Shown: positions 12,909 to 60,754, numbered from the stretch's first letter. The stretch: 64,000 nucleotides of DNA from an uncultured Peptococcaceae bacterium (GCA_963767365.1 CAVYEE010000030.1:132475-196474), one strand, 5' to 3'. Made by a program: numbers and translations. The notes: generated by a model from the letters alone, not told the origin.

Positions 12909-13040
12909 TTACCGATGGCTACCCGCTCTAATGCCCCCGCTTCTAAAGCGGTGGGATAAGAGCGGCTACGCCCCTAATTAACTGGCTCTAATCTTCAGTG
13001 GGGGAGGCAATCCCCCTCTGAAGCCAAGACCCAGTTGAAT
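12909..13040 (+). repeat. structured dispersed repeat, family A, copy A1
   Basis: TTACCGATGGCTACCCGCTCTAATGCCCCCGCTTCTAAAGCGGTGGGATAAGAGCGGCTAC...CTTCAGTGGGGG..CCCCCTCTGAAGCCAAGACCCAGTTGAAT. It has the same two-module architecture as the other 7 copies. Confidence 0.85.
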
Positions 13041-13137
13041 CCCTCCGTCCTGATTTCTACGCAAGCAGCCCTTCCTATAGACCCTCCGGCCCAGTCACAT
13101 ACCACCTGACAATTCTACATTGACGGGATAATTCCTG

Positions 13138-13162
13138 CATCAGCAACAAATTTTTGCTGATG
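13138..13162 (-). terminator. hairpin downstream of degV (possible terminator)
   Basis: CATCAGCAA-caaattt-TTGCTGATG lies 35 nt after the degV stop. There is no clear U-tract. Confidence 0.3.
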
Positions 13163-13196
13163 GATGTGTACCGGCAGGGAAGAGATAAGTGGTGTG

Positions 13197-14087
13197 TTAC
13201 GTCAACTTGTATTTGATTATTTCTTTCATGTCGTCCCTCACAGGATAGCAGCATAAAGCCAGGACTGGACCAATGTGAGCCCCGATCACCGGGCCCAACG
13301 GGCACAGTTCCAGGTACAGCTCCGGGTAAAGCCCTTGTACCCGCTGCAACAGGGCCTTCCCTTCAGCCTCGGCGCCAACGTGCACAAGCTCCACCTTCAG
13401 GTCGGGCGACTGCCGGTAGGCCTTGTCCACCTCGGCCAGGATCCGCTGCAACCCCTTCTCCTTTGTCCTGATCTTCTCGTAGACGTCGATGATGTTGTTC
13501 TTGCCGGGATTGAAATACAGGATTGGCTTCACCTGCAGCAGCGTTCCTACCAGTGCGGCAGCGCCGCCGATCCGTCCGCCCCTCCGCAGGTATTCCAGGC
13601 CGTCCGGTAAAAACAACAGCGTCAGGTGCTCCCTGATGTACTCGACGGCCTGCAGCACCCGCTCCTTTGACCAGCCGGCGGCAGCAGCCCGGGAGGCGGC
13701 ATCGACCATCACATAGAGTCCTAAGGAGGTAACGCCGGAATCCACCACGGAGATGTCCACTCCCGGCAGCATCCTGGCGGCAGAGCGGGCGGACTGCACG
13801 GTCCCGCTGATGCCCCCTGAGATATGGATGGAGATGATGCTGTCCACCTTGCCGGCCAGGCGCTCATAGACCTTTAAGAAATCGCCCATGGACGGCTGCG
13901 AGGTGGTGGGAAGATAGGATACCTGGCGCAGTTGTTCATAAAAATCCCGGTAGTCGGTAACGCTCGCTTCCGCCCAGCTCTGGTCGCCAAAGTTGACGAT
14001 CAGGGAGACCACCTCTACTTGCAGCTCTTCAATCTGCCCTGGAGTAAGATAAGCGGTACTGTCCGTCACGATCCCGATTTTTCCCAT
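13197..14087 (-). CDS. DegV family fatty-acid-binding protein
   Basis: This 296 aa ORF starts MGKIGIVTDSTAYL..., contains ...HISGGISGT..., and has DegV-typical length. Confidence 0.8.
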   Translation of the reverse strand: MGKIGIVTDSTAYLTPGQIEELQVEVVSLIVNFGDQSWAEASVTDYRDFYEQLRQVSYLPTTSQPSMGDFLKVYERLAGKVDSIISIHISGGISGTVQSARSAARMLPGVDISVVDSGVTSLGLYVMVDAASRAAAAGWSKERVLQAVEYIREHLTLLFLPDGLEYLRRGGRIGGAAALVGTLLQVKPILYFNPGKNNIIDVYEKIRTKEKGLQRILAEVDKAYRQSPDLKVELVHVGAEAEGKALLQRVQGLYPELYLELCPLGPVIGAHIGPVLALCCYPVRDDMKEIIKYKLT

Positions 14088-14257
14088 ATCGTTTCCTCCC
14101 GTCTCATTTGATCCTGCATAACTACTACTACAGTATTTGCGCTGTGGAACTTTAGTTGTACTTATTCTTGTTTCCTTGATGTTTATTCAATGCAAGTATA
14201 GCATTTTTTGAGTTTTAACTATACCTAAATCTTATTGTTTTGAACACAAGATACTTT

Positions 14258-14286
14258 CTTGACGCGTATTCACCGTAGTGCTATTT
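14258..14286 (+). promoter_or_regulatory. putative sigma70-type promoter for the cupin gene
   Basis: TTGACG-17 nt-TATTTT lies about 75 nt upstream of ATG 14362. Confidence 0.35.
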
Positions 14287-14361
14287 TGTTGGCAGGTGGC
14301 GCAATCTCCGGATAAGATACCGGAGGACGGCAAAGCACAACTTGAAAGGACGGGGAGAAGA

Positions 14362-14709
14362 ATGTATCTCAAAGAGGTAAAAAACATCGATTCCAAGGCT
14401 GTGAACGCCCCGGGAGTTGTTAATGCGTTCAAGCAAGTCCTGGTGGGGCCGCAGCAAGGCTGGTCAGGCTGGGTGATGCGCCTGTTTACCCTGGGCAAGG
14501 GCGGCAGCACCCCGAAGCACTCACATCCCTGGCCGCACATCAACTATATCGTCAGGGGGACGGGAACTCTGTTTCTGGAAGGTGAAGAGCGGGGGATCGG
14601 ATCTGATTACGTTGCCTACATCCCCGGCGGAGTAGCGCATCAGTTTAAAAACACGGGGGAGTCCGAGCTATCTTTTATCTGTATCGTGCCGGAAGAGGGA
14701 GATGTGTAA
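14362..14709 (+). CDS. cupin domain protein
   Basis: It carries cupin motifs (GGSTPKHSHPWPH ... GGVAHQFKNTG). I prefer the internal ATG at 14362, preceded by GGGGAG, over the track start at 14278. Confidence 0.7.
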   Translation: MYLKEVKNIDSKAVNAPGVVNAFKQVLVGPQQGWSGWVMRLFTLGKGGSTPKHSHPWPHINYIVRGTGTLFLEGEERGIGSDYVAYIPGGVAHQFKNTGESELSFICIVPEEGDV

Positions 14710-14858
14710 GGGAAGCACTTCCATCCCATTGCCGATGCTTCAAACAATAACAGCGGATAGACTCTTCCTTTTTCAGGAGAGCCTATCCGCTATCCATCTG
14801 TCCCGAAGCTCGACAGCATCAAGAAAGTTATTGCCGGCTTCAGACCGCCGGAACAGGT

Positions 14859-15374
14859 TCAAAGACAGTTTCCTAGCAGGTAATCACACACCGGAAGCAC
14901 CGTGTCCTGAAGTTTCCGGGACAGTCCCGGAGCAACCTCCTCGGGGATAGATTGCGGTTCAACGGCAACAAGCAGCACATCGAGCTGACACTGGTGCTTC
15001 ATCTCTTTTAAAAGGCTGGATGTTGGCAGATGGTGCAGCGAAAAATCGCCGCCTTTAACCGAAGGGAAATCTTCAACAGGCCTCACGGACACTTCTCCCG
15101 GCTGTCTTCCTGCAATCATGGTGTCTATGGCGACTATTTTTTGCGGTCTGATGGGGGACAAGGCAACAGTACACAGGATATCCCTGATGCCAGTCCCCAC
15201 ATCCAGGATGCAGACATCATCCGGCACTTTGCAATGAGTTTGGAGATGCGCAGCTACGGCCGGACCGAAGCCGTCGTCACCAAAGAGGATGTTTCCGCAT
15301 CCCAAGACGAGCACACGACTCCTGCAGAATTCTGGGATACAATCTTCAATAGATACGCCTGGCCTGCTCATCAC
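14859..15374 (-). CDS. [NiFe] hydrogenase maturation endopeptidase
   Basis: It has VLVLGCGNILFGDDGFGP and a later ...H motif. It lies directly downstream of the large subunit with a 4-nt overlap. Confidence 0.8.
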   Translation of the reverse strand: MMSRPGVSIEDCIPEFCRSRVLVLGCGNILFGDDGFGPAVAAHLQTHCKVPDDVCILDVGTGIRDILCTVALSPIRPQKIVAIDTMIAGRQPGEVSVRPVEDFPSVKGGDFSLHHLPTSSLLKEMKHQCQLDVLLVAVEPQSIPEEVAPGLSRKLQDTVLPVCDYLLGNCL

Positions 15375-16811
15375 TCTGTTATTGTCCCGGCCAGGTTCCC
15401 ATTACAGTCAAAGACGTCTATCTTGACGGGGATCCTGGCATCAAGACTATGAGTCGCGCATGATAGGCACGGATCATAGGCCCGAATTGCCATTTCTACG
15501 GTGTTAAGCACTCCCTGGTCATATTGACCGCCTTTGATGTTGTCCTGAGCCGCTTTCTTGACCGACATATTGATGGCGGCATTGTTGTGGGTTGTTCCCA
15601 CAATAATATTGACGTCCGTCACTATGCCTTTCTCATCAGTCTGGTAGTCATGAATGAGCGTCCCGCCGAGGCGCCTCCACCACTCCAATGCCCCGGGCAG
15701 CCCGGGGGCTGACCGCTTTTCTGGTATTCGGATCTGTGATCTCGGGATCATTCAAAAGTTCGATCGCCCTTTCCGCCGCATACACCGACTCGATCAGTCT
15801 TGCCCAATGATAGAGCAGAGTTAATTGGGTTGGCCTCCCGAAGCTTGCCCTGAACTCCTCCAGTTCTTTGTTGGCAAGAGGCGTGGCGATGCGGTCACAC
15901 ACGTTGATTCTGGCCAGGGCGTTCGTCCTGTAGATACCGATCGGGTTAGCCAGGTCCATGGAGAAGGGTTCTGCTGCTTTCCGGTAATAGGGGAACTTCA
16001 TGTAAGTCCAGGGCTCGACATGTTCGGCAATATAGTCCAGGTACTGCTCGGCGGCAAAGTCTTCGTATGACCCATCCCGGGTCATCATCCGGAGGTTGCC
16101 GTCGTAGAGGTTCAACGCTCCGTCCTTGACCATTCCAAGAAAGCCAGTGCTGATGGGGGCAAAGGACTTGACCAGATCAAGGTACTTGGGGAAGATCTGC
16201 GTCTTGGCAAAGTCAATGGCAAAAGTAGTGAAATCCAGGCATTCCTCGGCCATACCCTTCAGGCGTTCGACCTCATCCTTAGTAACTGGCTTGCTCCAAC
16301 CCCCGGGAACGGAGACATCGGGGTGGATGGCCTTTCCGCCCAGAATTTGAGTCATCATCTGGGCTAAAAATCTGGTGCGTACCACTCGCTTAGCCAAGTC
16401 GGGAGCCCTCTGGACAATGCCTACCACATTCCTGATGGAGTAATCGGCATCCGGTCCCAGGACAAAGTCTGGTCCTGATAGGATGAAGAAATGCAACACG
16501 TGGCTGGAGATGAAATGGGCCATGTAGGCAAGCTCGCGCAGCTTCTTTGCCGCTGACGGTATCTCTACCCCGAAAACGGCATCGCAAGCCTTGGAGGATG
16601 CCAAATGGTGTGCCCAGGGACAGACACCACAGATACGGCACACAATGCGAGGCAGTTCCTCGACCGGCCGGCCGATGCAAAATCTTTCAAATCCCCTCAG
16701 TTCAACCACGTTGACCTTCGCATCAGCGACATTTCCCTGGTCATCGAGTTGAATCGTAACCTTGGCATGACCTTCAATCCTTGTTACAGGCTGAATTACA
16801 ATCTGCTTCAT
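15371..16811 (-). pseudogene. mvhA: [NiFe] hydrogenase large subunit (Mvh/F420-non-reducing type); apparent 1-nt frameshift near 15665
   Basis: The N-terminus has RIEGH and RICGVCPWAHH, and the C-terminus has DPCLSCATH. ORFs 15648..16868 and 15371..15751 join at the conserved EAPRG/TLIHDY motif if one C is removed. The start is ATG 16811, after AAGGAAGGAG. Confidence 0.8.
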
Positions 16812-16827
16812 GGCAATTTCTCCTTCC

Positions 16828-17751
16828 TTATTTTGTCGGTGTGGGCCGGAGCCGTCCCACCACACCAATGAACCGGTTAAAAGTGGCCGCCCGATCCTCT
16901 ATTTCCTTGACATCGAGCCCAATGCTCGAGAGGGCGCCCATCATATCGACCATCGGGTTAGCTCCGGCCCGGATGGGACCGAAACAACCACGGCAGGCCA
17001 TATAAGCCTTGATACAGCGAGGGGTTTTTTCCGACCCACCACAGCCAGACCTTGTTGCCGGTCCCAGGCAGAGGAAGCCCTGTTCCATCAGGCAGCGCAC
17101 CTCATTCATGGGTTGACCCGGCACGAACTCAGCATTCTCAAGCGGCCTCTTCAACTTCACTACAGCCTTCTTCTCCCTCCTGGTAGGGCAGTCGTCGCAG
17201 ACACTCCTCTCTGCAAGGGCGAAAGGCTTCCCCGCCAAGAGGCTGGTCAAGGCCTCAGCAATTAATTCAGGCGTGGGTGGACAGCCAGGCAACTGGACAT
17301 CAACCTTGACAACCTCACTCACTGAATATACCCTGTCCATGAAGGGGGGGATATCTGCAGCCGGGGTATCCGCCGGTTCGGTGCTGCTCGTGCCCCGGTA
17401 GACTTTATCGAAGATATCCTGTGTGGTGGACAGATTGCCTAAAGCTGGTATGCCGCCAAAGTTGGCACAGGAGCCGATGGCAATCAGTGTCTTACACTTG
17501 TTGCGCAGTTCCACGGCCACCTGTTTATTCTCCTCGGTACGGATGCCCCCGCTGATGATCCCCACATCGGCCTCCGGGATTTCCAGAGTGCTTTTCTCTC
17601 CCATTTGCCCATAATACTTATGGTCCATGAGCACGGGCATATGGACAAACTCCAACTCGGGCAACAAATCCAGCAATGGCTCTCCTATATCGAGAATACT
17701 GACCTCACAACCGCCGCAGGTGGCTAGCCACTCTTCCGCTACTCGCACCAT
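16828..17751 (-). CDS. mvhG: [NiFe] hydrogenase small subunit (MvhG-like)
   Basis: This 307 aa ORF has CGGCEVS, GSCANFGGIP and distal Fe-S Cys clusters, and no Tat signal. That fits a cytoplasmic Mvh-type enzyme. Confidence 0.8.
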   Translation of the reverse strand: MVRVAEEWLATCGGCEVSILDIGEPLLDLLPELEFVHMPVLMDHKYYGQMGEKSTLEIPEADVGIISGGIRTEENKQVAVELRNKCKTLIAIGSCANFGGIPALGNLSTTQDIFDKVYRGTSSTEPADTPAADIPPFMDRVYSVSEVVKVDVQLPGCPPTPELIAEALTSLLAGKPFALAERSVCDDCPTRREKKAVVKLKRPLENAEFVPGQPMNEVRCLMEQGFLCLGPATRSGCGGSEKTPRCIKAYMACRGCFGPIRAGANPMVDMMGALSSIGLDVKEIEDRAATFNRFIGVVGRLRPTPTK

Positions 17752-17776
17752 AGACTTAACCTCCCTTCAGTTATTT

Positions 17777-17962
17777 TCACTCTCCTACCGCTTGAACCAC
17801 TCTTCTCGTGAATAAAAAGCATTGTCCACCATCCTCGATCATCTCGACATCAAATCCATCACTGCTGTATTTTTGCATCCCCTCCTCCGCCTCTTGACGA
17901 CCTGGATAGGTCATTCCATCCCACATAAATTTCTTTCCGCTGAACGTCTTTACCAGGTCCAT
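17777..17962 (-). CDS. small hypothetical protein (61 aa) inside the hydrogenase/Hdr operon
   Basis: A good RBS (GAGGTGA, 4 nt before the ATG) precedes it, and it sits tightly between mvhD and mvhG. I recognised no family. Confidence 0.5.
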   Translation of the reverse strand: MDLVKTFSGKKFMWDGMTYPGRQEAEEGMQKYSSDGFDVEMIEDGGQCFLFTRRVVQAVGE

Positions 17963-17988
17963 AACATCACCTCAAAAAGTAAGTAGTA

Positions 17989-18405
17989 CTACATTTTAAA
18001 TGGGCTAGGCCCCAGAGCCTTTACTTGAGCTGTCATCTCGGTGACAACCTCGGCAAACCTGGGCGCCTCGGATGCCGATACCCATTCCAGCCTGAATCTC
18101 TCTTCTTCAATGCCCATGTCCTGCATCATCAGCTTGATGGCATCGGCCCTGGTTTGCGCCTTCAGGTTTCCCTCCAGGTAATGGCAATCTCCAATATGAC
18201 AGCCGCAAACAAGCACTCCGTCAGCGCCTTTAGTCAAAGCATCGATGATCAGGTTTGGATGCACCATCCCACTGCACATAACCCTGATGATCCGGATATT
18301 CGGCGGATATTGGAGCCGGGAAACTCCTGTCAGATCCGCCCCCGCATAAGAGCACCAGTTGCAGCAGAAGGTCACAATCAATGGTTCAAAAGTTTCTGTA
18401 CTCAT
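17989..18405 (-). CDS. mvhD: MvhD-type [2Fe-2S] hydrogenase/Hdr electron-transfer subunit (Cys form)
   Basis: This 138 aa ORF has [12 protein letters not shown]...RVMCSG...VCGCHIGDCHY. Confidence 0.85.
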   Translation of the reverse strand: MSTETFEPLIVTFCCNWCSYAGADLTGVSRLQYPPNIRIIRVMCSGMVHPNLIIDALTKGADGVLVCGCHIGDCHYLEGNLKAQTRADAIKLMMQDMGIEEERFRLEWVSASEAPRFAEVVTEMTAQVKALGPSPFKM

Positions 18406-27155: not shown

Positions 27156-27185
27156 CTCCCCACCTGCCTCCCCGTTTATGACCAC

Positions 27186-27345
27186 TAACGTTTACTATAA
27201 CTGCAGTTTACTATGGTATTAGGATAATCACTAATTATATTTCGAGATGCTACCATAAGATATTACTATTATTAAGTTTTGATATGATACCATAAGATAT
27301 TGTTACTATTATTAATTTTTGATATACTGCCATAAGATATTTTTA
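27186..27345 (-). promoter_or_regulatory. AT-rich promoter/operator cassette C1 (three direct operator repeats + TATAAT)
   Basis: In the minus sense it reads 3 x ATATCTTATGGnnnnATATCAAAA at a period of about 40 nt. The last repeat abuts TATAAT, followed by CCATAGTAAAC-n5-TTATAGTAAACGTTAG immediately upstream of hdrC. Confidence 0.6.
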
Positions 27346-27369
27346 TATAATTCCGTGGCCGCTTCCGGG

Positions 27370-28272
27370 CTACAGCACCTGCTCCTGGCAGAATTTGATG
27401 AAATCCTCCCTGATACTGAAGGGGTCATAAAGATCATCCAAGTTATCCAAAAAGATAAAATTAAACTCCCTGAGCATCCGGAAGTCGTCGATGGGAACAA
27501 TTTTAATGGTCTGGTTGGCTACGGGTTGCTTCAAAACCTCCCTGGAGAGGATGGTGCACCCCAGGTTGGACTCCACCAGGGAAACGATCGCCGTGATATC
27601 CCCGATCTCTATGTAAACGCTATCTTCATTCAACCTGTGCCCGGCCCGCCGCAGACAGTCCTCGATCACCATTCTGGTTCCCGAGCCCTTTTCTCTCAGA
27701 ATCAACCTGTCTGCCAGCAATTCGTCGATGCTCACGGATTTCTTGCCGGCGAAGGGATGATGCACAGACACCGCCAGCACCAGTTCGTCATCTTTCAACT
27801 TTGCGTAGCGGAACCTCGTTCTGTCAAAAAGACTTTCGATGACCGCCAGATCGATCTCGCCGGCGTATAGTTTTTTGATGATGGTCTCATGGTTGCCGAC
27901 CTGGAGAATGATATCGACGCTTTCCTTCTCTTTCTTGTATCTGCCGATGATGTCGGGCAGCACGTAACCGCCGTTCGTAAGGGTGGCGCCCACCCGGTAT
28001 TTCCTGATGATCCCCGGTTTATTGTCCAACATGGCTTTGACGATCTTGCCCAGGCGTTCCGCCTCTGTGGCGTACTGCAGCAAAATTTCGCCTTCCTTGG
28101 TCAACTCCATCTGCCGGTTCTTTTGATAGAAAAGAGGCGCCCGATAGTACTCCTCAAGGAATTTTACGTGCTGGGAAACGGCGGGCTGGGTAAGATTCAG
28201 GAGATTGGCGGCCTTGGTGTAATTATTGGTTTGAGCCACCACAATAAAGGTCTGGATCCTGATGTCGATCAC
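27370..28272 (-). CDS. LysR-family transcriptional regulator (paralog 1)
   Basis: This 300 aa ORF has an N-terminal wHTH (FIVVAQTNNYTKAANLLNLTQPAVSQHVKFLE). It is about 92% nt-identical to 38023..38952. Confidence 0.88.
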   Translation of the reverse strand: MIDIRIQTFIVVAQTNNYTKAANLLNLTQPAVSQHVKFLEEYYRAPLFYQKNRQMELTKEGEILLQYATEAERLGKIVKAMLDNKPGIIRKYRVGATLTNGGYVLPDIIGRYKKEKESVDIILQVGNHETIIKKLYAGEIDLAVIESLFDRTRFRYAKLKDDELVLAVSVHHPFAGKKSVSIDELLADRLILREKGSGTRMVIEDCLRRAGHRLNEDSVYIEIGDITAIVSLVESNLGCTILSREVLKQPVANQTIKIVPIDDFRMLREFNFIFLDNLDDLYDPFSIREDFIKFCQEQVL

Positions 28273-28314: not shown

Positions 28315-28503
28315 TTACCAGATGACTACCCGCTCTAATGCCCCCGCTTCTGCGAAGCGGTGGGATAAGAGCGGCTACGTCACTGTATTAACGATTTCTA
28401 AGCTGCAGCGGGGGAAGACAATCTCCGCTGCAGCCAAGAACTCGTTGAATGATAATTCAGTGGGGGAAAGCAAACCCCCACTGAAGCCAAGAACTAGTTG
28501 AAC
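28315..28503 (+). repeat. family A repeat, copy A2 (3' hairpin module duplicated)
   Basis: Module 1 is canonical. Module 2 is present twice: CTGCAGCGGGGG...CCGCTGCAGCCAAGAACTCGTTGAAT, then TTCAGTGGGGG...CCCCCACTGAAGCCAAGAACTAGTTGAAC. Confidence 0.85.
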
Positions 28504-28764
28504 TGGTAGGGTCCGAATAGAAGATCCGCTATAAGGTCATCGATACGTGAATACTACCAGGAACGATAACGGGAAGATCTACAAGCTCCCAGAGCATCTG
28601 GTGATCACCTGTTCGGAGAAGAGAGCCAAAATCGAGAGGTCCGGAATCACCGGCTACGAAAAGGCCGGGACTTTACGGGAAGACAAGTCCAAGATCAAGG
28701 CAGGCAACAAGCGAGGTGACAAAAAGTAGTTCGAGGAGATCGAGTCTGGCCAGGTTAACTGGGA

Positions 28765-28846
28765 TAACGTTTACTATAACTAAAGTTTACTATGGCATAA
28801 CGATAATCACTAATTATATTTTGATATGCTCCCATAAGATATTTCT
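28765..28846 (-). promoter_or_regulatory. AT-rich promoter/operator cassette C2 (single unit)
   Basis: In the minus sense it reads ATATCTTATGGGAGCATATCAAAATATAATTAGTGATTATC...CCATAGTAAACTTTAGTTATAGTAAACGTTA. It lies about 490 nt upstream of lysR paralog 1. Confidence 0.5.
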
Positions 28847-28847
28847 A

Positions 28848-28873
28848 TAACTTCGCTTCGCTTCGTTTTAATC
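28848..28873 (-). repeat. family B fragment
   Basis: AACTTCGCTTCGCTTCGTTTTAATC matches the 5' hairpin of family B (AACTTCGCTTCGCTTCGTTTGAATC). Confidence 0.5.
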
Positions 28874-28896
28874 ATCCAGTTGTGGAGCGAAGCGAG

Positions 28897-36596: not shown

Positions 36597-36733
36597 TTAC
36601 CACAAATGACTACCCGCTCTAATGCCACCGCTTCTGAAGCGGTTGGATAAGAGCGGCTACGCCTCTAGTTAACTATTTCTAAGCTTCAGTGGGGGTAAGA
36701 CAATCTCCCACTGAAGCCAAGAACTAGTTGAAC
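36597..36733 (+). repeat. family A repeat, copy A3
   Basis: This is a full two-module copy, with the inner stem variant GCCACCGCTTCTGAAGCGGTTGG. Confidence 0.85.
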
Positions 36734-37722: not shown

Positions 37723-37935
37723 TAACATTTACTATAACTACGATTTCAGTTTAATATGGTTTTAAGGTAATTACCAATTATAATTTGATATGCCACCATA
37801 AGATTTTTCACTAATTATATTTCAATATGCCAGCATAAGATATTTTTATTAATGAACATTTACTATAACTACGATTTCAGTTTAATATGGTTTTAAGGTA
37901 ATTACCAATTATAATTTGATATGCCACCATAAGAT
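37723..37935 (-). promoter_or_regulatory. AT-rich promoter/operator cassettes C3+C4 (exact 81-nt unit duplicated at 131-nt period)
   Basis: 37724-37804 and 37855-37935 are identical by eye. Each carries ATCTTATGGTGGCATATCAAATTATAAT in the minus sense. An extra operator, ATATCTTATGCTGGCATATTGAAATATAAT, lies between them. Confidence 0.6.
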
Positions 37936-38022
37936 AATTCTATATTTGTCGGTTTCCCAAAGGAAACAGAAGTGGAGAATAAACGCAGCATGGGGGGTCA
38001 ATCAGGTGGGGGGAAAATGGTC

Positions 38023-38952
38023 TTATTTCTGCGTCAGCTCTCCGCCGGGCTGCAGCACCTGCTCCTGGCAGAATTTGATGAAGTCCTCCCTGAGACTGAA
38101 GGGGTCATAAAGATCATCCAGATCATCCAAAAAGATAAAATTAAACTCCCTGAGCATCCGGAAGTCGTTGATGGGAACAATTTTAATGGTATGGTTGGCT
38201 ACGGGTTGCTTCAAAACCTTCCTGGAGATGATGGTGCACCCAAGGTTGGACTCCACCAGGGAAACGATCGCCGTGATATCCCCGATCTCTATGTAAACGC
38301 TCTTTTCGTCCAACCTGTACCCGGCCCGGTGCAGATAGTCCTCGAAAACTGTTCTGGTTCCCGAACCCCTTTCTCTTAGGATCAACCTGTCTGCCAGCAC
38401 TTCGTCGATGCTCACGGATTCCTTGCCGGCGAAGGGATGATGCGCAGACACCGCCAGCACCAGTTCGTCGTCTTTCAACTTTGCGTAGCGGAACCTCGTT
38501 CTGTCAAAAAGACCTTCGATGACCGCCAGATCGATCTCGCCGGCGAATAATTTTTTAATGATGGTTTCGGTGTTTGCAGCCTGGAGAATGATATCGAAGT
38601 TTTCCTTCTCTTTCTTGTATCTGCCGATGATGTCGGGCAGAACGTAACCGCTGATCGTCAGGGTGGCACCCACCCGGTATTTCCTGATGATCCCCGGTTT
38701 ATTGTCCAACTTGGCTTTGACGATCTTGCCCAGGCGTTCCGCCTCTGTGGCGTACTGCAGCAAAATTTCGCCTTCCTTGGTCAACTCCATCTGCCGGTTC
38801 TTTTGATAGAAAAGAGACGCCCGATAGTACTCCTCAAGGAATTTTATGTGCTGGGAAACGGCGGGCTGAGTAATATTCAAGAGATTGGCGGCCTTGGTGA
38901 AGTTCTTGGTTTGAGCCACCACAATAAAGGTCTGGATCCTGATGTCGATCAC
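38023..38952 (-). CDS. LysR-family transcriptional regulator (paralog 2)
   Basis: The start is GTG 38952, homologous to the paralog 1 start. It is 309 aa, with a 9-aa C-terminal extension relative to paralog 1. Confidence 0.88.
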   Translation of the reverse strand: MIDIRIQTFIVVAQTKNFTKAANLLNITQPAVSQHIKFLEEYYRASLFYQKNRQMELTKEGEILLQYATEAERLGKIVKAKLDNKPGIIRKYRVGATLTISGYVLPDIIGRYKKEKENFDIILQAANTETIIKKLFAGEIDLAVIEGLFDRTRFRYAKLKDDELVLAVSAHHPFAGKESVSIDEVLADRLILRERGSGTRTVFEDYLHRAGYRLDEKSVYIEIGDITAIVSLVESNLGCTIISRKVLKQPVANHTIKIVPINDFRMLREFNFIFLDDLDDLYDPFSLREDFIKFCQEQVLQPGGELTQK

Positions 38953-39653
38953 CTGACGTACCTCCGCCCGGATCTGAATACTCCCCAATAACGTCATTCT
39001 ACCCGCTACCACTCAACCAAAACAATCAGTTGCCTTTAACCAAAAAGTTATTCGGTTAAACTAAAACTGGTCACAAGGGTTGAGCGCTGGGTCGGCACAA
39101 GCCAAGTTTTACTGATAATTCAGCCCCGGCGGCAGCCCGGGCCTCTCCCTTTGTCCTGCATCCCGCTTCCCCTGACACTTTTCACACTGCATTTTGATTA
39201 CATCCCTTTCCACTAATATATTAATTAACATTTACATTTAATGCCATATTCATCATAGTTACAGTAATAGGGGATGTCAAGATTTAGTCCCGCGTATCAG
39301 TGTTGACACCTAAATTATTGAGCCAGGTCAGCCGGGGCTGTCCAAGATGCTAGGAGGGCAAACGGCGTAGCGTCTAAAATCTGAGCAGACAGCCAGATCC
39401 GGAAGGTAATCGCTGGAATGCCGTCAAATATTTAAGGGGTGGCAGATTATCTCAATTATATTGGAGGAAGATTATATGCAACTGTGGGCACCGGGCAAGC
39501 TGCATGTTTACAGTATTTTCGAGCTAGATGAAAAACCGGAGATTCGCCGACTTTACTATTATGTGGTATGGGTGGTGGTGGTGGATAATGGCTAGGTAAT
39601 AGCAAGATTTTGGCAAGGCAAAGCTATTACCGCCTGATTACTTACCCTTAAAT

Positions 39654-44342: not shown

Positions 44343-44465
44343 TTCAATTCACCCCCAGTTTCTCCGGGCTTTTCCCGGACATGGAAAGCTAATGCGGGGT
44401 ACCGATCTGGGAGAAGAGAACCGCCGGCTGAAGAAAAAGCCGCAACGCTTTATAACTGTTTTAGT

Positions 44466-44518: not shown

Positions 44519-44566
44519 GGGCCGCTTCAGAAAAGCGGGGGCATTAGAGCGGGTAGTCATCTGGGA
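44519..44566 (-). repeat. family A repeat, truncated copy A4 (module 1 only)
   Basis: The reverse complement reads CCCAGATGACTACCCGCTCTAATGCCCCCGCTTTTCTGAAGCGGCCC. It lacks the outer-stem 3' arm and module 2. Confidence 0.7.
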
Positions 44567-44589: not shown

Positions 44590-44632
44590 AACAGGCACGT
44601 GGCATTAAACTTCGCTTCGCTTCGTTTGAATG
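44590..44632 (-). repeat. family B fragment (B3)
   Basis: AACAGGCACGTGGCATTAAACTTCGCTTCGCTTCGTTTGAATG matches 51970-52014 of copy B2. Confidence 0.65.
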
Positions 44633-44854
44633 TTCGAAATCCTGTACAAACATTTTTATGAAAATCCGGACATTAGTTAAGAGTTTCCGGTCCTTCCACC
44701 TGCCGCCCGCCTTTCTCTTGGTCTTTTATCCAGTTCAGGAAAAGAAGGCGCTCTTCGGTTACAGCACCGAATGTTCCTGCATTCAAGCCACTCACCGGCT
44801 TGCGGGCTACCGCATCCCATCTCTGTCTCAGAAAATATTCCGAATGCTTTACAA

Positions 44855-51841: not shown

Positions 51842-52014
51842 TAACTTCGCTGAGAAGTCCCCCGCCTCTTAGGCGGTGGGTTCAGGTTGATAGAATCAGT
51901 GGGGGTTCAATCCCCTCTGATTCAGCGAAGTTAAATGATTTAAGAGCCGTGCCATATGTTTGCTTCGCAAACAGGCACATGGCAAATTCAAACTTCGCTT
52001 CGCTTCGTTTGAAT
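51842..52014 (-). repeat. family B repeat, full copy B2
   Basis: This is the reverse complement of B1 with about 90% identity. It lies immediately upstream of the sigma54 activator gene and abuts A5. Confidence 0.8.
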
Positions 52015-52100: not shown

Positions 52101-52239
52101 GTACCACAGATGACTACCCGCCCTAATGCCCCCGCTTCTAAAGCGGCGGGATAAGGGCGGCTACATCACTGAGTATTAACTGGCTCTAAGCTTCAGTGGG
52201 GGAAAGCAATCCCCCACTGAAGCCAAGGCCCAGTTGAAT
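52101..52239 (+). repeat. family A repeat, copy A5
   Basis: This is a full copy. The outer stem carries the compensated pair CCGCCCT/AGGGCGG, against CCGCTCT/AGAGCGG elsewhere. Confidence 0.85.
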
Positions 52240-52500: not shown

Positions 52501-52628
52501 TTACCGATGCTACCCGCTCTAATGCCCCCGCTTCTGAAGCGGTGGGATAAGAGCGGCTACGCCCCTAATTAACTATTTCTAAGCTTCAGCGGGGGAAGGC
52601 ACCCACTGAAGCCAAGAACTAGTTGAAC
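52501..52628 (+). repeat. family A repeat, copy A6
   Basis: This is a full copy with a small deletion in the module 2 loop and 3' arm. Confidence 0.85.
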
Positions 52629-54936: not shown

Positions 54937-54984
54937 TCTTCTTGCCTCCTTTTTAATCATTAATCACCAAAAGAACCTTCCTGT

Positions 54985-56172
54985 TCAACCAAGTTCTTTT
55001 CCCACAATACACACCGAAACAACGCAATAGGCCGGCTGTCCACCCAGGTTGTGGGTCAGCGCCAACCGGGGATTCTCCAATTGCCGTGAACCGGCCTCAC
55101 CCTTGAACTGCAGGTAGCATTCGTACAGCATGCGCAGTCCAGTCGCACCGATGGGATGACCGAAAGACTTAAGGCCTCCGTCCGGGTTTACCGGAAGTTT
55201 TCCTTTCAGTTCGAAGTAGCAGCTTTCTACGTCTTTCCAGGCTTCGCCCCTGGGGCTGAATCCCAGGTCCTCATAAATGATTAGCTCTGTGATGGTAAAG
55301 CAGTCATGTACTTCAGCAAAGCTGAGCTCCTGGCGCGGATTACTGATGCCTGCCTCCTTGTAGGCGGCCTGTGCGGCGTAGTAGGTTTCCCACACTGTGG
55401 TATAGTCGTAGCCCTGGTGACGCTCTCCGTAGCCGGGGCCGGCGGCGATTGACATCCCCTTCACATACATGGGGTTCTTGGTGTACTTGTGGGCGTCCTC
55501 GACCCGGCAGATGATGGCGCATGATGCTCCGTCAGCTACGCCGGAACAATCGTAAATTCCAAGCGGGTAGGCTACCATGGGAGACTTCATGATTACATCA
55601 AGCGGGACTTCAGTCCTGTACTGGGCTTTAGGATTAAGCGATCCATTTAAATGGTTTTTCCAGGCAATTTTTCCTATGACTTCTTTCAGGTGGCTCATTT
55701 TCAGATTGTATTTTTCGGCATAGGCTGGAGCCAGCAGCGCAAATCGGGCTGGTGCAGTCGGTTCCGGTGTTGTCCGGTCAGAATGCACCATGGGGGTTTC
55801 CAGCCCACTGTACCCACAGTCTTTCAGCTTTTCCGCCCCGATCGCCATGACGACGTTATACGCTCCCGAGGCTACGGCGTAGCATGCGTTTCGAAATGCA
55901 TCGCTTCCGGTAGCGCACATGTTCTCCACCCGGGTGACCGGCTTGTACTGGGTTTTCAGCGCCATGGAAAAAGGCAGCGCTCCGGTAGTGCTGGAACTGT
56001 AAGTTCCGAACCAGAAAGCGTCGATGTCCTTTAGCTCTACGCCCGCATCATTACAGCATTCCATGATGGCTTCTATCATTAAATCATCAAGACTGCAGTC
56101 CCATCTCTCTCCAAACTTGCTGCACCCCATGCCAATCACCGCTATCTTGTCCTTGATTCCCATCTGTTTCAT
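54985..56172 (-). CDS. SCP-x-type thiolase-like protein
   Basis: This 395 aa ORF has IAVIGMGCSKFGERW and NMCATGS, and lacks the classical C-terminal thiolase II signature. It is paired with an HMGS-like/DUF35 gene. Confidence 0.8.
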   Translation of the reverse strand: MKQMGIKDKIAVIGMGCSKFGERWDCSLDDLMIEAIMECCNDAGVELKDIDAFWFGTYSSSTTGALPFSMALKTQYKPVTRVENMCATGSDAFRNACYAVASGAYNVVMAIGAEKLKDCGYSGLETPMVHSDRTTPEPTAPARFALLAPAYAEKYNLKMSHLKEVIGKIAWKNHLNGSLNPKAQYRTEVPLDVIMKSPMVAYPLGIYDCSGVADGASCAIICRVEDAHKYTKNPMYVKGMSIAAGPGYGERHQGYDYTTVWETYYAAQAAYKEAGISNPRQELSFAEVHDCFTITELIIYEDLGFSPRGEAWKDVESCYFELKGKLPVNPDGGLKSFGHPIGATGLRMLYECYLQFKGEAGSRQLENPRLALTHNLGGQPAYCVVSVCIVGKELG

Positions 56173-56179
56173 CCCCCCT

Positions 56180-57589
56180 CTACCTTTTCGGTATGGCTTT
56201 CCAGAAGTGTGTTACAATCCCTTCCGCTTCGAACAGCTTTCTGAAAGACAGCTCTAGTTCCATCCCCACTTCAATTCTGGCCGGATCGCAGTCCGTCATG
56301 AGGCACACAAACCGGCCACCGCCTTCAAAGTCCATGACCGCCAGGATCGTCGGGGGGTCTAGCGACGGCGCCAGATAATCCATGGTATAGGTGGCCAACT
56401 TGGCCTTTCTGCCGAGGAACTTGTAGTCCTCCATCTGGTCGATAGCCTGACAGTTAATGCATACCCTCTGGGAAGGGAACTGGGGAGTTCCGCAGGAGGT
56501 GCAACGACTACCGTAGAAGCTCAGGATTTTTTTCAGGTTTCTATAGCGATCAGGCAAGGAGGGCCTTACCAGCGGGGGTCTTCGCTGGGGTTCCAGCGGA
56601 ATCAGCTCGCGCCACCTCAGGTACTTGCCGTAGTCCATGTCCGTCTTTTTGCTGTTAAGGTACCCTTGGATGCCACGACGGGCAGGCAGGCTCTTTATAG
56701 CATCCGTTACCTGAAAAACCATTGCATCGCTGCCTTCACCATAGGTAATAAACAGAATCTTGTCCCCGGGCTCCGACTTCTCCAGGGCTGCAACCAAGGC
56801 CATGGGCGCACTGGCGGCTCCTGTGTTGCCGATCGCACTAATCATGTTATCTTGGACCTGTTCAGGGCTGAACCCCAACTTTCTGGCTACTTCAACGGCG
56901 TCTTTGTCTTTCAGACCATAAATGACTGTCCGGGCAAAGTCTCGGGGGGCCAACCCGGTCTTTTTCATGGCTTCCCTTGCTGCTTCGACCGTGAAGATAT
57001 TGTAGCCCTGGCTCTGACAGAACCGTTCTTCCCAGTTCCTCACGAAATCGTCATGCTGTGACCGCCAATGGTCATAGAAGTCTGCTGCCACAGTGTGTGA
57101 CCCCAGAAAAGCAGCTACCACGTTCTTATTTCCCAGAAGAAAAGCTGCTGCTCCATCCCCAAACAAGGCTTCCAGCGCCCCTCCGGCACCACCCAGACGG
57201 CTGTCACTGATGGCTAACAGTACTTTTTCGCCCTTTTCTGCCGCGTCAAGACCAGCCATCATGGCACTGGACCCTGACCGCAGCGATCCGGTGATGTCCA
57301 TAGTACGGACACCTCTGTTCGCATCCAGGGTGCCAGCAAGGGTCGTAGCGCTCTGTTTTTCCCTGTAGGGAGGAGTTGTGCTGGCAAAAAAGACAGCGCT
57401 AAGGTCCTTCGTGTCCAGTCCCGAAGCACAATCCAAGGCTGCAGCGACCGCCATTGTAAGGCTGTCCTCATCGTAATTGGACACCGCTTTTTCGCCCTGA
57501 GGAACAGGGCTCCCGTAAACATCTCTGATATGCTGTCGATTCAGACGGTTAAATGGGATGTAGGCACCGTATGCAACAATTCCTGTCAT
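56180..57589 (-). CDS. HMG-CoA-synthase-like condensing-enzyme domain fused to Zn-ribbon/OB-fold (DUF35) domain
   Basis: The N-terminus has a thiolase-fold/HMGS-like sequence (VAYGAYIP...). The C-terminus has CTSCGTPQFPSQRVCINC followed by an OB-fold. The start is ATG 57589, 9 nt after GAAGGAGGG. Confidence 0.75.
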   Translation of the reverse strand: MTGIVAYGAYIPFNRLNRQHIRDVYGSPVPQGEKAVSNYDEDSLTMAVAAALDCASGLDTKDLSAVFFASTTPPYREKQSATTLAGTLDANRGVRTMDITGSLRSGSSAMMAGLDAAEKGEKVLLAISDSRLGGAGGALEALFGDGAAAFLLGNKNVVAAFLGSHTVAADFYDHWRSQHDDFVRNWEERFCQSQGYNIFTVEAAREAMKKTGLAPRDFARTVIYGLKDKDAVEVARKLGFSPEQVQDNMISAIGNTGAASAPMALVAALEKSEPGDKILFITYGEGSDAMVFQVTDAIKSLPARRGIQGYLNSKKTDMDYGKYLRWRELIPLEPQRRPPLVRPSLPDRYRNLKKILSFYGSRCTSCGTPQFPSQRVCINCQAIDQMEDYKFLGRKAKLATYTMDYLAPSLDPPTILAVMDFEGGGRFVCLMTDCDPARIEVGMELELSFRKLFEAEGIVTHFWKAIPKR

Positions 57590-57638
57590 CCTGGTAAACC
57601 CTCCTTCATATGCAAGAAGACTAGCATCCATTCGGTAA

Positions 57639-58508
57639 TTATTGCTTGGCCGTATAGTCGTAGAACCCCCTGCCCGTTTTCTGTCCGAAATCCCCGGCTT
57701 TAACCTTGTTACGTGTACCTACTCCAATGCAGAATCTGTCGCCAAAGGCCGCACGCAGGCCATCTCCAACCCTCACTATGGTGTCAATCCCGCTAAAATC
57801 AAATAGTTCAAAGGGTCCCATGGGATGTCCCAGAGCATATTTGATGGCCTTGTCGATCTCTTCAACGCTGGCCAGCTTCTCATCATAAACACGACTGGCT
57901 TCCACCATAAGTCCGGCAAGAATGCGGTTAACCACAAAGCCGGGGGTGTCCTTGCACGTACACGTTTCTTTTCCCATTCTCCTGGCCAAATCCACTACTG
58001 CCTCGACACAAGCCGGTGCGGTGTGCTCTCCTGCTGGAATCTCAACAAGTTTCATGACCTGGGCCGGATAAAAGAAGTGCATGCCGATCACCTGCTCTGC
58101 TCTTCCGGTAACAGAGGCAAGTTCCGTGATGCTCAGTTGAGAGGTATTCGTGGCCAGAATCGCATCCGGTTTCAGGATTTGGTCCAACCTGGTAATTATA
58201 TCTTTCTTGAGTTCTATGATCTCCGGTACAGCCTCTATGACAATGTCACAGTCCGCAAAATCGTTCATGTCCAACGAAGTATGTATCTTCGTCAGTAGAG
58301 CATCCGCCTGCTCCTGGAGCATCTTACCGGCCGCAACAGACTTCAGCAGGAGCTTCTTAATCCTCCCTAAACCTTTTTCCAGCTCGTCTGTGTTAATATC
58401 AGCCAGAATCACGTCGCATCCGGCCTGGGCAGCGAGTTGAGCAATTCCGTGTCCCATCAGGCCAGCACCGAGAACCCCGACCTTGTCAATCGTACTTACC
58501 ATTTTCAT
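57639..58508 (-). CDS. hbd: 3-hydroxyacyl(butyryl)-CoA dehydrogenase
   Basis: This 289 aa ORF has an N-terminal Rossmann fold (VGVLGAGLMGHGIAQ) and Hbd-like length. Confidence 0.88.
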   Translation of the reverse strand: MKMVSTIDKVGVLGAGLMGHGIAQLAAQAGCDVILADINTDELEKGLGRIKKLLLKSVAAGKMLQEQADALLTKIHTSLDMNDFADCDIVIEAVPEIIELKKDIITRLDQILKPDAILATNTSQLSITELASVTGRAEQVIGMHFFYPAQVMKLVEIPAGEHTAPACVEAVVDLARRMGKETCTCKDTPGFVVNRILAGLMVEASRVYDEKLASVEEIDKAIKYALGHPMGPFELFDFSGIDTIVRVGDGLRAAFGDRFCIGVGTRNKVKAGDFGQKTGRGFYDYTAKQ

Positions 58509-58529
58509 CGTCCTCCTATCTCATAAGCC

Positions 58530-59672
58530 CTATTTCAAGATTTCACGCGCAATGATCAGCCTCTGAATCTGTGACGTACCTTCAACGATCTGCAACAACT
58601 TGGCATCCCGCATCGTCTTTTCCAGGGGATAATCCCGCATATATCCATATCCCCCGAGAATCTGAATAGCATCGGTGACAACCTTCTGTACCATATCAGC
58701 ACCGAAGCATTTGGCCATAGCTGCATTTCGGGGGGCAGCCATGCCATTGTCCAGCATCCAGGCTGCTTTCTGATATAGAAGTCTGGCTGCTTCAATGCTT
58801 ATATCCATATCGGCCAACATGAATTGAATGATCTGCATATTGGCAATGGGGCCTCCAAACTGTTTGCGATCCTTGGCGTAGTCCCGGGCTGTTTCCATCG
58901 CAAACTGGCCGATGCCAACCCCCATGGCTCCAATAACCGGACGAGAAGCGTTAAAAGCATTCATAGCAATTTTGAACCCAATTCCTTCTTCGCCAAGCCG
59001 GAATTCCTTGGGGACCTTAACTTGATCGAAGATAACTTCAGCAGTATCAGCAGCCCGGATGCCCATCTTCTTCTCTTTCTTCCCAACACTGACTCCATTC
59101 CAGTTCCGGTCTACCAGAAAAAAGGTGAGTCCTTTGTGGCGTTTGCTCTTATCCAGAGTAGCGAGCACGACATACTTTGAGGCAACACTTCCGTTACTGA
59201 TGAAGCACTTGGCGCCATTCAAAACATAGTGGTCTCCCTCAACTGTGGCCGTCGTTGATATGCTGCTAATGTCTGATCCCGCATTGGGCTCGGTAACGCA
59301 GTATGCACCGATTTCCCCTTTCTGGCACAAGCCGGTAAACCACCACTCCTTCTGTTCTTCATTTCCGGCAAGTTCTACCGGTTCACAGGCAAGCAGGTTC
59401 GCCATGGGGATAGTGGCGATACCACCACACCCCTTGGCTATACCCTCCATGACCATGCATCGGGTTAGATGGTCCCATGGATAGCCGCTGATTCTCTCCG
59501 GCCCGGCCATGCACAAAATCCCTATCCCCGCCATTTTGTGGATTACTGGCCACGGAAACTGCTCCGTCTCATCATAATAGGCTCTTACCGGGATGATTTC
59601 TTTTTCCACAAAGCGCCGTATTGTCCGGATTATCTCGGTCTGTTCGGGTGTCATGGAAAAGCTGAATGGCAC
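58530..59672 (-). CDS. acyl-CoA dehydrogenase (short/medium chain type)
   Basis: It has [10 protein letters not shown] and ...VEGTSQIQR. The start is GTG 59672, 7 nt after GGGAGGG. Confidence 0.88.
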
Positions 59673-59779
59673 GCTATTGCCCTCCCTTCTCACTCCACGT
59701 TGTGCGAGGCTTAATGCCAGAACTGTGTTGGTCCGCCACCTTACGCAAACGGGAGCTTAGTGGCGGTTAGCCATCGGGG

Positions 59780-59862
59780 AAATCGTTGAACCAGTGACTT
59801 AACCGCTCTTATCCTACCGTTTCAGAGAAACGGGGGTATTAGAGCGGGTAGTCATCTGGTAA
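59780..59862 (-). repeat. family A repeat, variant copy A7 (module 1 only, tail inverted)
   Basis: The reverse complement reads TTACCAGATGACTACCCGCTCTAATACCCCCGTTTCTCTGAAACGGTAGGATAAGAGCGGTT... The inner stem is compensated (CCGTTTC/GAAACGG). It is followed by GGTTCAAC instead of module 2. Confidence 0.7.
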
Positions 59863-60072
59863 ATAACGATAATAATATAAATATAATGATAGTTATATTT
59901 ATATATTACATCGTACCAATAAGATGTCAATCCACCATCCTTGGGTAAGCTTGTAAAGGTTTCTTCGGTGGTTGCATTCGTTGATACGGAGATACAGGAT
60001 ACTTCTTAGCCCCTTTGTCTTGCACTGCTTAACAATATGTGAAAAAATAAGTTAAAAAGGGGATGGTTTGAG

Positions 60073-60681
60073 ATGGGCGAAGAAAAAAGCGATTGGGAGA
60101 AATGCAGCGAGTTTCATGGCCATATCTGTCCCGGGCTGGCGATCGGCTACCGGGCGGCCAAAATCGGCCTGCAGGAACTTGCCGCAAGACGGGCGTTGGA
60201 CGAAGAACTGGTGGCCATTGTCGAGAACGATGCCTGTGGTGTGGATGCAGTGATGGTCGTCACGGGGTGCACCCTGGGCAAGGGCAACCTCCTGTTCCGG
60301 GATTTCGGCAAGAGCGCCTACACCTTCATGAGCCGCCAGAGCGGGGTTGGGGTGCGCATCTCCGTGAAAACAAGGGCCCGGGATATCCAGCCGGCTTCGC
60401 TACGGTCCGGGCCGAGCATCGTGCAGCAGATCCTGGATTTACCCCAGGAGGAGTTTTGCACGGTTCAGAATATCGAAGAGGAGCTACCGAAGCCGGCCCG
60501 GATTTTCAACTCGATCACCTGTGCCTTCTGTGGCGAAGCAGTTTCTGAATCCAGGGCGCGGGTGAAAGACGGCAAACTTGCCTGCATCCCCTGCGCCGGA
60601 CAATACACCAGGGGCTGTTCAACTAGTTCTTGGCTTCAGTGGGAGATTGTCTTACCCCCACTGAAGCCTAGAAATAGTTAA
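60073..60681 (+). CDS. FmdE-family protein whose last ~21 codons and stop are supplied by repeat A8
   Basis: It has the FmdE N-terminal motif (FHGHICPGLAIGYR) and a C-terminal Zn-ribbon (CAFCGE...CIPCAG). After ...QYTRG the frame enters the repeat (CSTSSWLQWEIVLPPLKPRNS-stop). Confidence 0.75.
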   Translation: MGEEKSDWEKCSEFHGHICPGLAIGYRAAKIGLQELAARRALDEELVAIVENDACGVDAVMVVTGCTLGKGNLLFRDFGKSAYTFMSRQSGVGVRISVKTRARDIQPASLRSGPSIVQQILDLPQEEFCTVQNIEEELPKPARIFNSITCAFCGEAVSESRARVKDGKLACIPCAGQYTRGCSTSSWLQWEIVLPPLKPRNS

Positions 60682-60754
60682 TACAGTGATGTAGCCGCTC
60701 TTATTCCACCGCTTCAGAAGCGGGGGCATTAGAGCGGGTAGTCATCTGTGGTAC
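60617..60754 (-). repeat. family A repeat, copy A8
   Basis: This is a full two-module copy in inverted orientation. It overlaps the 3' end of the fmdE-like ORF. Confidence 0.85.

Follow-up and report, generated by a model that had tools for sequence, protein, structure and literature searches.

IS608 inserts 3' of the tetranucleotide TTAC with no gain or loss of DNA and carries subterminal imperfect palindromes, and its cleavage and target tetranucleotide is read by a guide which lies 5' of the hairpin foot, where changes to the left guide retarget the element predictably (PMC3201880). Both IS608 and ISDra2 target the lagging-strand template (PMC5027513), and protein-less relatives in the IS605 superfamily have been named PATEs and REPs (PMC4810608). 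Here we describe a repeat, referred to as family A, which is present in eight copies in a 64,000-nt stretch of DNA from an uncultured Peptococcaceae bacterium (GCA_963767365.1 CAVYEE010000030.1:132475-196474). This whole stretch is called the window, and related loci or contigs from other strains or metagenome-assembled genomes (MAGs) carry L-numbers (L001 etc.). Family A is likely to be a gene-less, non-autonomous element of the IS200/IS605 (HUH Y1) superfamily, similar to PATEs and REPs, because it has neither terminal inverted repeats nor a target-site duplication, a 4-nt target is found 5' of its left end, hairpins are present at both ends and a guide appears to pair with the target. In sequence and in host lineage it is a new family of the PATE type, within a class which is already known.

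The unit of ~130 nt consists of two long imperfect hairpins of ~65 nt each, different from each other and arranged in tandem (hairpin 1 and hairpin 2). It is like IS608 and ISDra2 in the lack of terminal inverted repeats, in having an imperfect hairpin near each end and in exact insertion 3' of a tetranucleotide, and like IS608 in that the target complements, position by position, a tetranucleotide immediately 5' of the left hairpin, with matching natural variants of guide and target. Unlike both, it carries no tnpA or tnpB gene, is only ~130 nt long and has far longer hairpins, and the distances differ from those in IS608 (left boundary to inner hairpin, 24 nt compared with 19; foot of right hairpin to element end, 16 nt compared with 10). 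Pneumococcal BOX and enterobacterial ERIC elements are, as family A is, modular and intergenic, with variable internal modules and long stable stem-loops. To our knowledge, however, these families are bounded by terminal inverted repeats, by target duplications or by both and lack any guide/target relationship, and we know of no sequence similarity between them and family A. PATEs are likewise short and non-coding, with IS605-type hairpin ends, a 4-bp target, no duplication and a Y1 enzyme presumed to act in trans (PMC4810608). They are defined by termini shared with an autonomous insertion sequence of the same genome, whereas family A was assigned from its ends and junctions, and its host lineage (uncultured peat Peptococcaceae/Thermacetogeniaceae) and its sequence are both new.

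Insertion junctions

Contigs of related strains (L150, L151 and L153) were obtained through cluster mates of the TetR protein encoded in the window and are 94–99% identical to the window at 43.3–62.9 kb. Strain-to-strain insertion polymorphism, the absence of which had been set beforehand as refuting the original prediction, was present between strains at this level of identity. Two pairs of empty and filled alleles were clean, and both showed exact insertion with no target-site duplication. In the first pair the empty allele (L042) reads gggtgctgac followed directly by ccggacgg, and the filled allele (L026) reads gggtgctgac-CACAGATGAC...CCCAGTTGAA-ccggacgg. The second pair consists of the empty site at window 51929/30, where CATTTAAC is followed directly by TTCGCT, and the filled site in L151, which reads CATTTAAC-CGATGG...CTAGTTGAA-TTCGCT. 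This latter pair has a unique solution and so the right end of the element is fixed at GTTGAA.

Family A is mobile, and other copies in the window also differed between strains. The copy at 60618-60750 was absent in L150 with an exact left junction (cttgtGTAC, ending at the insertion point), and on the other side of this site 33 nt which lie between two xTAC sites in L150 were missing in the window. The copy at 52105-52238 was absent in L150, and in L151 it had been deleted between CCTG microhomologies. Three alleles were observed at 52505-52627: hairpin 1 only (L151), hairpins 1 and 2 (window and L153), and hairpin 1 followed by a 133-nt nested module and then hairpin 2 (L150). Only the window strain has the truncated copy at 44522-44563, and in L150 and L151 ~160 nt of unrelated sequence take its place. 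Older polymorphic examples were L051/L063 and L016/L027.

The insertion points of the empty alleles shared no core and no G/TT step, and nothing beyond the 4-nt motif described below. This bears directly on the recombination site which the original prediction had offered as one option beside a BIME/REP-like element and a small-RNA family. The R' consensus of an integron attC site is GTTRRRY; the right end of family A, GTTGAA[C/T], fits it, its pairing partner being the TTAAC at the 5' foot of hairpin 2. The variable apical hairpin structures, and a 45-kb segment with six copies which is missing from a related contig, would also suit a recombinase site of the attC or Xer/dif kind. Against this stand the empty alleles, the spacing of the copies (0.4–15 kb apart in the window, among housekeeping and metabolic genes) and the lack of any cassette array or integrase in the window. 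A conventional DDE-type miniature inverted-repeat transposable element is opposed by the lack of both terminal inverted repeats and a target duplication of fixed length. We therefore consider a recombinase site or an element of this latter kind to be most improbable, and return to an IS200/IS605-type element as the preferred explanation.

Target motif and guide

Across 77 left ends the consensus of the 5' flank directly before the element was TTTA[C/T], with more distal positions variable. The insertion point lies immediately 3' of a TTAC-like tetranucleotide, with GTAC, TGAC and TAAC as variants. The flank motif, including its -1 base, was also found in the empty alleles (GCTGAC, TTTAAC and GTGTAC, each ending at the insertion point), which indicates that it belongs to the target and not to the element. 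The copies that had been predicted with a consensus starting at TTACC are real, but the TTAC of that consensus is flanking target DNA which lies outside the element.

Position by position, TTA[C/T] complements AAT[G/A], an internal-loop tetranucleotide which directly precedes, on the 5' side, the inner hairpin within hairpin 1. Where the -1 base of the flank was C, the fourth base of the loop was G in 43 cases and A in 4, and where the flank base was T, the loop base was A in 17 cases and G in 7. This association was highly significant (Fisher exact p = 1.2e-7, odds ratio 26) and remained so without strain-level orthologues (p = 7.6e-8). By analogy with IS608, we read this covariation as the pairing of a guide with its target. 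No guide rule could be derived for the B-type or C/D/E units which accompany family A (see below).

Two other classes of element were dropped as candidates. The targets of IS91-type elements are GAAC/CAAG, whereas the conserved flank of family A is TTAC-like and at the opposite end, and the internal loops, of only 2–4 nt, spoke against an IS110 bridge-RNA.

Structure of the element

Hairpin 1 extends from CACAG to CTGT. Its 5' arm reads CAG-TGAC-TA-CCGCTCT-[AATG]-CCC-CCGCTTC and, following the loop, its 3' arm reads GAAGCGG-T-GGG-[ATA]-AGAGCGG-TA-GTCA-CTG. Hairpin 2 extends from TTAAC to GTTGA and is made up of AACTGGCTCT-AA-GCTTCAGTGGGGG, a loop, and CCCCCACTGAAGC-CA-AGACCCAGTT. The stems which had been assigned to two modules are present, but each is only the core of a far longer hairpin (29 and 25 bp in our model). 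The compensatory stem changes that had been noted were all found, namely CCGCCCT/AGGGCGG in the copy at 52101, CCGTTTC/GAAACGG in that at 59780 and CTGCAGCGG/CCGCTGCAG in the first module 2 of that at 28315. The reported lack of terminal inverted repeats also held, since the left end CACAGATGAC was unrelated to the reverse complement of the right end, TTCAACTAG, in 30–54 aligned copies, and a repeat finder run on the window returned only matches between whole copies.

The consensus folded with -81 kcal/mol (RNA) or -44 kcal/mol (DNA), its reverse complement was equally stable, and z-scores of -10.7 to -12.8 were obtained on either strand with RNA or DNA parameters. In an alignment of 54 copies from the window and related MAGs, standard pairs occupied 92.9% of cells, compared with only 33–47% when control structures were slid by 1–3 columns. 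Base-pair covariation between copies, as had been predicted, was confirmed: 20 of the 54 pairs were changed on both sides compared with 8.6 +/- 1.6 after column shuffling, and none of 500 shuffles reached 20. This alignment had been fitted to the structure model, which somewhat favours the structure, but a MAFFT-based alignment agreed with it; a 30-copy version was also tested. The unpaired internal loops (TAAT/ATAA in hairpin 1, CTAAG/CCAAG in hairpin 2) were invariant or nearly so. At one stem pair of the hairpin at 59791-59858, orthologous copies carried C-G in L151, T.G in L150 and T-A in the window.

Such features might also be expected of a structured RNA, either a small RNA or a cis-regulatory or processing element, for which mobility would be secondary. 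The very stable RNA fold (z about -12.7), the compensatory changes, including those in situ at the orthologous copy, the invariant internal loops and the inserted modules, which are multi-helix units with GAAA-type loops, all favour this. However, both strands fold equally well, and the copies lie in both gene orientations and in every type of spacer in proportion to spacer length. Stem mismatches on the plus strand of the original prediction were G.T in 90 cases and A.C in 88 (38 and 88 when the fixed T.G at the base of hairpin 2 was excluded), and this absence of an excess of G.U over A.C is unlike an RNA that is selected on one strand. No terminator-like T run was found 3' of either hairpin. 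A scan of the whole window at Rfam gathering scores gave 0 matches, and E-value scans of two element regions gave only sub-threshold matches to generic hairpins. The invariant AAT[G/A] loop is accounted for by its pairing with the flanking target. The small-RNA option of the original prediction was accordingly set aside on the grounds of orientation, mismatches and Rfam, and a structured RNA in general appears very unlikely. Of the three options put forward, the BIME/REP-like one stood in kind, given the polymorphism and the IS608-like guide and target.

Copies in the window

All eight copies were re-found at their predicted positions by nhmmer, using a five-copy profile, and by a covariance model. 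The degenerate 24-nt core CTACCCGCYCTAATRCCNCCGYTT, for which up to 2 mismatches were tolerated, had 8 matches in the window, all exact, compared with 0.00 expected (0 in every one of 100 dinucleotide-preserving shuffles). Exact limits are given in Table 1, in which the composite copies at 28319-28502 (plus strand) and 59734-59858 (minus strand) are listed by their parts. The B-type hairpin at 59734-59778 has the same left-end motif as family A and different stem sequences.

Table 1. Positions of family A copies and of related or neighbouring repeats. Coordinates refer to the window unless an L-number is given.
Feature	Position	Strand	Remarks
Full copy, short 5' variant CGATGG..., end ...CCCAGTTGAA	12913..13039	+	5' flank CTTTAC; between ParA-like and DegV genes
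Full copy, hairpin 1 + hairpin 2	28319..28449	+	5' flank GTTAC; hairpin 2 is the compensated variant CTGCAGCGG/CCGCTGCAG
Extra second apical hairpin-2 module + tail	28456..28502	+	Starts 6 nt past the first right end
Full copy	36601..36732	+	5' flank TTTAC; inner stem with compensated CCA/TGG pair
Truncated copy, left end through inner hairpin of hairpin 1 only	44522..44563	-	Window strain
Full copy, outer stem CCGCCCT/AGGGCGG	52105..52238	+	Target GTAC 52101-52104; guide AATG 52125-52128
Full copy	52505..52627	+	5' flank TTTTAC; three structural alleles across strains
Hairpin 1 of a copy without hairpin 2; inner stem CCGTTTC/GAAACGG	59791..59858	-	
Diverged B-type hairpin (GATGGCTAACCGCCAC...GTGGCGG)	59734..59778	-	Directly 3' of the hairpin at 59791-59858
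Full copy	60618..60750	-	5' flank GTGTAC; overlaps FmdE-like open reading frame 60073-60681
Unoccupied target, TTAAC on minus strand	51930..51934	-	Insertion point between 51929 and 51930; filled in L151
Second repeat family	9571-9727	+	
Second repeat family	51858-52014	-	
Second repeat family, partial copies	44608-44633, 28849-28874		
Small REP-like units, examples	L016 725-860, L007 859-932, L041 182-263, L069 2923-2997, L002 6430-6475, L061 316-358		

Nested units and mosaic copies

Many copies in the related MAGs carried extra modules at fixed points. A 47-nt unit, CCTCCGCAT-CCGGGCTTACAGCCCGG-CCTGAAGA-ATGCGGAG-TACAT, was found in the loop of hairpin 1; its position shifts slightly between copies, and its excision restores the canonical loop exactly. 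Units of 48 nt and 96 nt were located in the 3' internal loop. The B-type unit, which combines the left-end motif of family A (CCGATGGCTAAC) with other stems, was inserted after TTT[A/C]C in the 5' arm of hairpin 2. Some mosaic variants are explained by recombination between nested units (L062 compared with L046) and others by deletion between CTAGTT repeats which flank hairpin 2.

In addition to being nested in family A, small REP-like units, designated C/D/E (CCGCATCCGGGCTTACGCCCGGCCTGAAGAATGCGGAG with CACAGG or TACAT 3' of it, and longer relatives), were observed in the related MAGs both singly and grouped into BIME-like clusters. As they also stand alone or clustered in other spacers, they constitute separate REP-like families. 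The window itself contained none of them except a 27-nt fragment of an 'F' module at 39092-39118, and E. coli genomes gave no match to the stand-alone cluster from L016, a query which is not family A.

REPs are known to be inserted inside other palindromes and to form subfamilies with complementary stem changes (PMC3733652), and family A might therefore be viewed strictly as a REP/BIME family, that is, as GTAG-tagged REPs which are spread by a single-copy domesticated RAYT (TnpA_REP), are largely inherited vertically and may benefit the host. REPs carry an unpaired GTAG or CGTC tag at one end. Read on its bottom strand, hairpin 1 is GTAG-CCGCTCT...AGAGCGG-GTAG, and a GTAG thus flanks the 7-bp outer stem at either end; hairpin 2 lacks a tag of this kind. 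In common with REP, BIME and REPIN families, family A consists of extragenic high-copy palindromes with GTAG beside a stem on one strand, complex self-complementary loops as in some GTAG REP families, subfamilies with complementary changes, mosaic clusters and units inside other palindromes (PMC3733652). Several species possess family A, its subfamilies are distinguished by complementary changes in the stems, the orthologous copy has C-G in one strain, T.G in another and T-A in a third, and the small REP-like units cluster in a BIME-like manner and nest in palindromes as REPs do (PMC3733652). On the other hand, REPs are palindromes of 20–40 bp and REPINs are inverted doublets, whereas family A is a ~130-nt tandem of two different long hairpins. 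RAYT (TnpA_REP) cleaves at the dinucleotide CT (PMC8266576) but the mapped junctions lie elsewhere, and target and guide are on the top strand (TTAC 5' of the element) and not on the strand which bears GTAG. The distribution over spacer types is also unlike the REP pattern, with no enrichment downstream of genes, and a search for a RAYT gene in the window and ~0.58 Mb of related loci was negative. A REP family in this strict sense is thus unlikely, and a non-autonomous IS200/IS605-type element, with REP-like traits, is preferred.

A broader proposal is that family A is the hub of a self-nesting set of hairpins (A, B-type and C/D/E) which share one Y1-type enzyme, with a target reprogrammed through the guide and with stem pairing maintained in place; we hold this to be possible but doubtful. 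A single change of the guide base, AATG to AATA, would then shift insertion from TTAC-type to TTAT-type targets. The part concerning pairing, which rests on one locus, would imply a host-level role of the folded DNA or RNA, or hairpin-directed repair. In a variant of this proposal the right end would still act as the scaffold of an orphan guide RNA that serves a TnpB-type nuclease.

A second, unrelated repeat family of ~160-180 nt, ATTCAAACGAAGCGAAGCGAAGTTTGAAT...TGCCATGTGCC...ATATGGCACGGCTCTT...CAGAGGGGATTGAACCCCCAC..., which contains TGGCAC, was also observed. Its two longer copies in the window are 83% alike and in opposite orientations relative to neighbouring genes, and an additional copy lies upstream of the thiolase gene in L150. 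This repeat is itself a landing site of family A in L151, where two nested insertions are present.

Distribution and search for a mobilising gene

In a species-representative genome collection the core of family A was found, among the matches listed, at at least 68 loci in six peat or wetland MAGs. The hosts among these matches were the Peptococcaceae MAGs bog_1190, palsa_1188 and MFD03726, the Thermacetogeniaceae MAG SPRUCE 237 and the Bacillota MAG MAG053. Two further contigs among the matches listed were binned as Dehalococcoidia, and the sources overall were peat, bog, palsa and Danish soils. The Dehalococcoidia-labelled contigs (L015 and L055; JBEKCL01, SPRUCE 159) contained typical family A copies with nested units, which points either to wrong binning of Bacillota contigs or to transfer between phyla.

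In the 562 kb comprising window and loci, nhmmer gave 119 non-overlapping matches, which were full copies (43), hairpin 1 only (45), hairpin 2 only (14) or other forms (17). The median identity between copies within a genome was 0.81-0.87. Copies that are identical (L052 and L058) or 99% identical (L019 and L069) were nevertheless found at separate loci of one MAG and point to recent activity. Several contigs start (L001, L152, L154) or end (L024, L018, L002, L054) inside a family A copy, and in L004 a run of N (3881-3898) lies within one. Copy numbers in these MAGs are probably underestimated because family A breaks short-read assemblies.

Searches of plasmid and phage collections by blastn revealed nothing similar to family A, a pattern scan of IMG/VR gave no match, and a literature text search with four core strings returned unrelated primers only. 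The statement that this is not a described element therefore holds at the level of sequence (Rfam, plasmids, phages, IMG/VR and literature), but the class to which it belongs is well known.

As originally reported, there is no transposase in the window: Pfam analysis of ~50 open reading frames (ORFs) identified no transposase, integrase or Y1 protein. Every ORF of 60 aa or more from the window and 70 loci was searched with phmmer using approximate queries for IS608 TnpA, IS200 TnpA and the E. coli RAYT, and no match below E = 0.2 was obtained. All-against-all clustering of ORFs for a recurrent neighbour returned nothing but ABC ATPases and spurious ORFs that span the repeat. In L022 an isolated hairpin 1 and an isolated hairpin 2 are separated by 3.2 kb, which encode an acyltransferase and an ARMT1-like protein, with no transposase. 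A helper gene was thus not found in the sequence covered, and a Y1 transposase is the presumed helper.

Genomic setting

As predicted, copies were intergenic or clipped the ends of ORFs, as judged from crude gene calls. Of 73 composite elements which could be classified, 41 lay in co-directional spacers (15 sense, 26 antisense), 21 in divergent and 11 in convergent ones, compared with a length-weighted spacer background for the same DNA of 63/21/16% (co-directional/divergent/convergent). The suggested tendency to lie upstream of operons was not borne out, since there was no excess over spacer length and the preference for promoter regions was not significant. Nor were copies enriched downstream of genes. 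Taken together, gene orientation, wobble asymmetry in the stems and GC skew pointed to no clear strand of function.

At 60618-60750 the hairpin of the right end encodes the last ~22 codons (60616-60681) of the FmdE/zinc-finger ORF. The FmdE-like gene of L150, the strain lacking this copy, ends in a different sequence, which indicates that the insertion replaced the C-terminal tail of FmdE.

The gene content of the window is that of an anaerobe (CODH/ACS, Hdr/Mvh-like and beta-oxidation genes), and a scan of the window for tRNA and tmRNA genes found none. One contig, L070 (Ga0187870_1000713), with proteins ~80-88% identical, was syntenic with the window over 5800-14725 and then directly over 60011-63861, and the intervening 45-kb segment of the window (~14.73k-60.0k; L070 9348-9938) is thus an indel or island. 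It holds Hdr/Mvh-like genes, a NiFe hydrogenase, two LysR genes, beta-oxidation genes, a sigma-54 activator and six of the eight copies. L070, which was the sole close relative recovered by a metagenome scan with the FmdE protein (80% aa identity), has no family A copy. Exact-protein look-ups of DegV and ArsR returned no record.

Other differences and repeats were also seen. In L150, ~425 nt (1022-1446) between an AMP-ligase gene and a spacer are lacking in the window (44364-44367). The LysR-type genes at 27370-28272 and 38023-39012 are 94% identical over 300 nt (27365-27664 and 38045-38344). Beside the LysR genes an AT-rich unit of ~40 nt, TTACTATTATTAAGTTTTGATATGATACCATAAGATATTG, occurs in seven copies, in arrays at 27183-27342, 28762-28887 and 37726-37982; these may be operator arrays or another repeat family.

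Discussion

If family A belongs to the IS200/IS605 superfamily, both hairpins would be bound on one DNA strand by a Y1 transposase whose gene lies in another part of the genome, either an IS200/IS605 TnpA or a relative resembling RAYT. The AAT[G/A] guide would pair with the flank and thereby set the site of left cleavage and of integration, and the element would be transposed in the form of a single-stranded circle ('peel and paste'). Its loops and arms take up insertions of smaller palindromic units of the REP-like kind and of a sister family which shares the left-end motif, and recombination between such nested units gives rise to the mosaic and deleted forms. Effects on neighbouring genes, such as the replaced C-terminus of FmdE, would be by-products.

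Several observations weigh against this interpretation. No guide/cleavage relationship could be derived for the right end, and the guide lies in an internal loop closed by the 7-bp outer stem, whereas that of IS608 is in a free single strand 5' of the hairpin. The filled allele at 52105-52238 has TAC on both sides and can be read as a 3-bp duplication. Orientation was mixed (5 plus and 3 minus in 64 kb; 15 sense and 26 antisense) and, unlike for IS608 and ISDra2, did not fit lagging-strand targeting (39:51 relative to local GC skew, p = 0.25), with the reservation that these proxies are crude since they come from MAG contigs on which replication origins are unplaced. Neither the window nor ~0.58 Mb of related loci yielded a gene for a Y1 transposase, RAYT, TnpB or any further transposase. 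Much of family A is old, as most copies within a genome are only 81–87% identical.

Family A reveals no new mechanism. It does show that elements preferentially land in the hairpin loops of other elements, and it explains breaks in assemblies, where contig ends or runs of N fall inside copies. It marks strain-level structural variation near Wood-Ljungdahl, Hdr-like and beta-oxidation clusters and alters at least one gene end (FmdE). It also provides a natural data set, with dozens of independent insertions, in which covariation between guide and target tetranucleotides can be seen for a Y1-type element. With it, uncultured relatives of acetogens and syntrophs in peat gain a defined and abundant family of mobile repeats.

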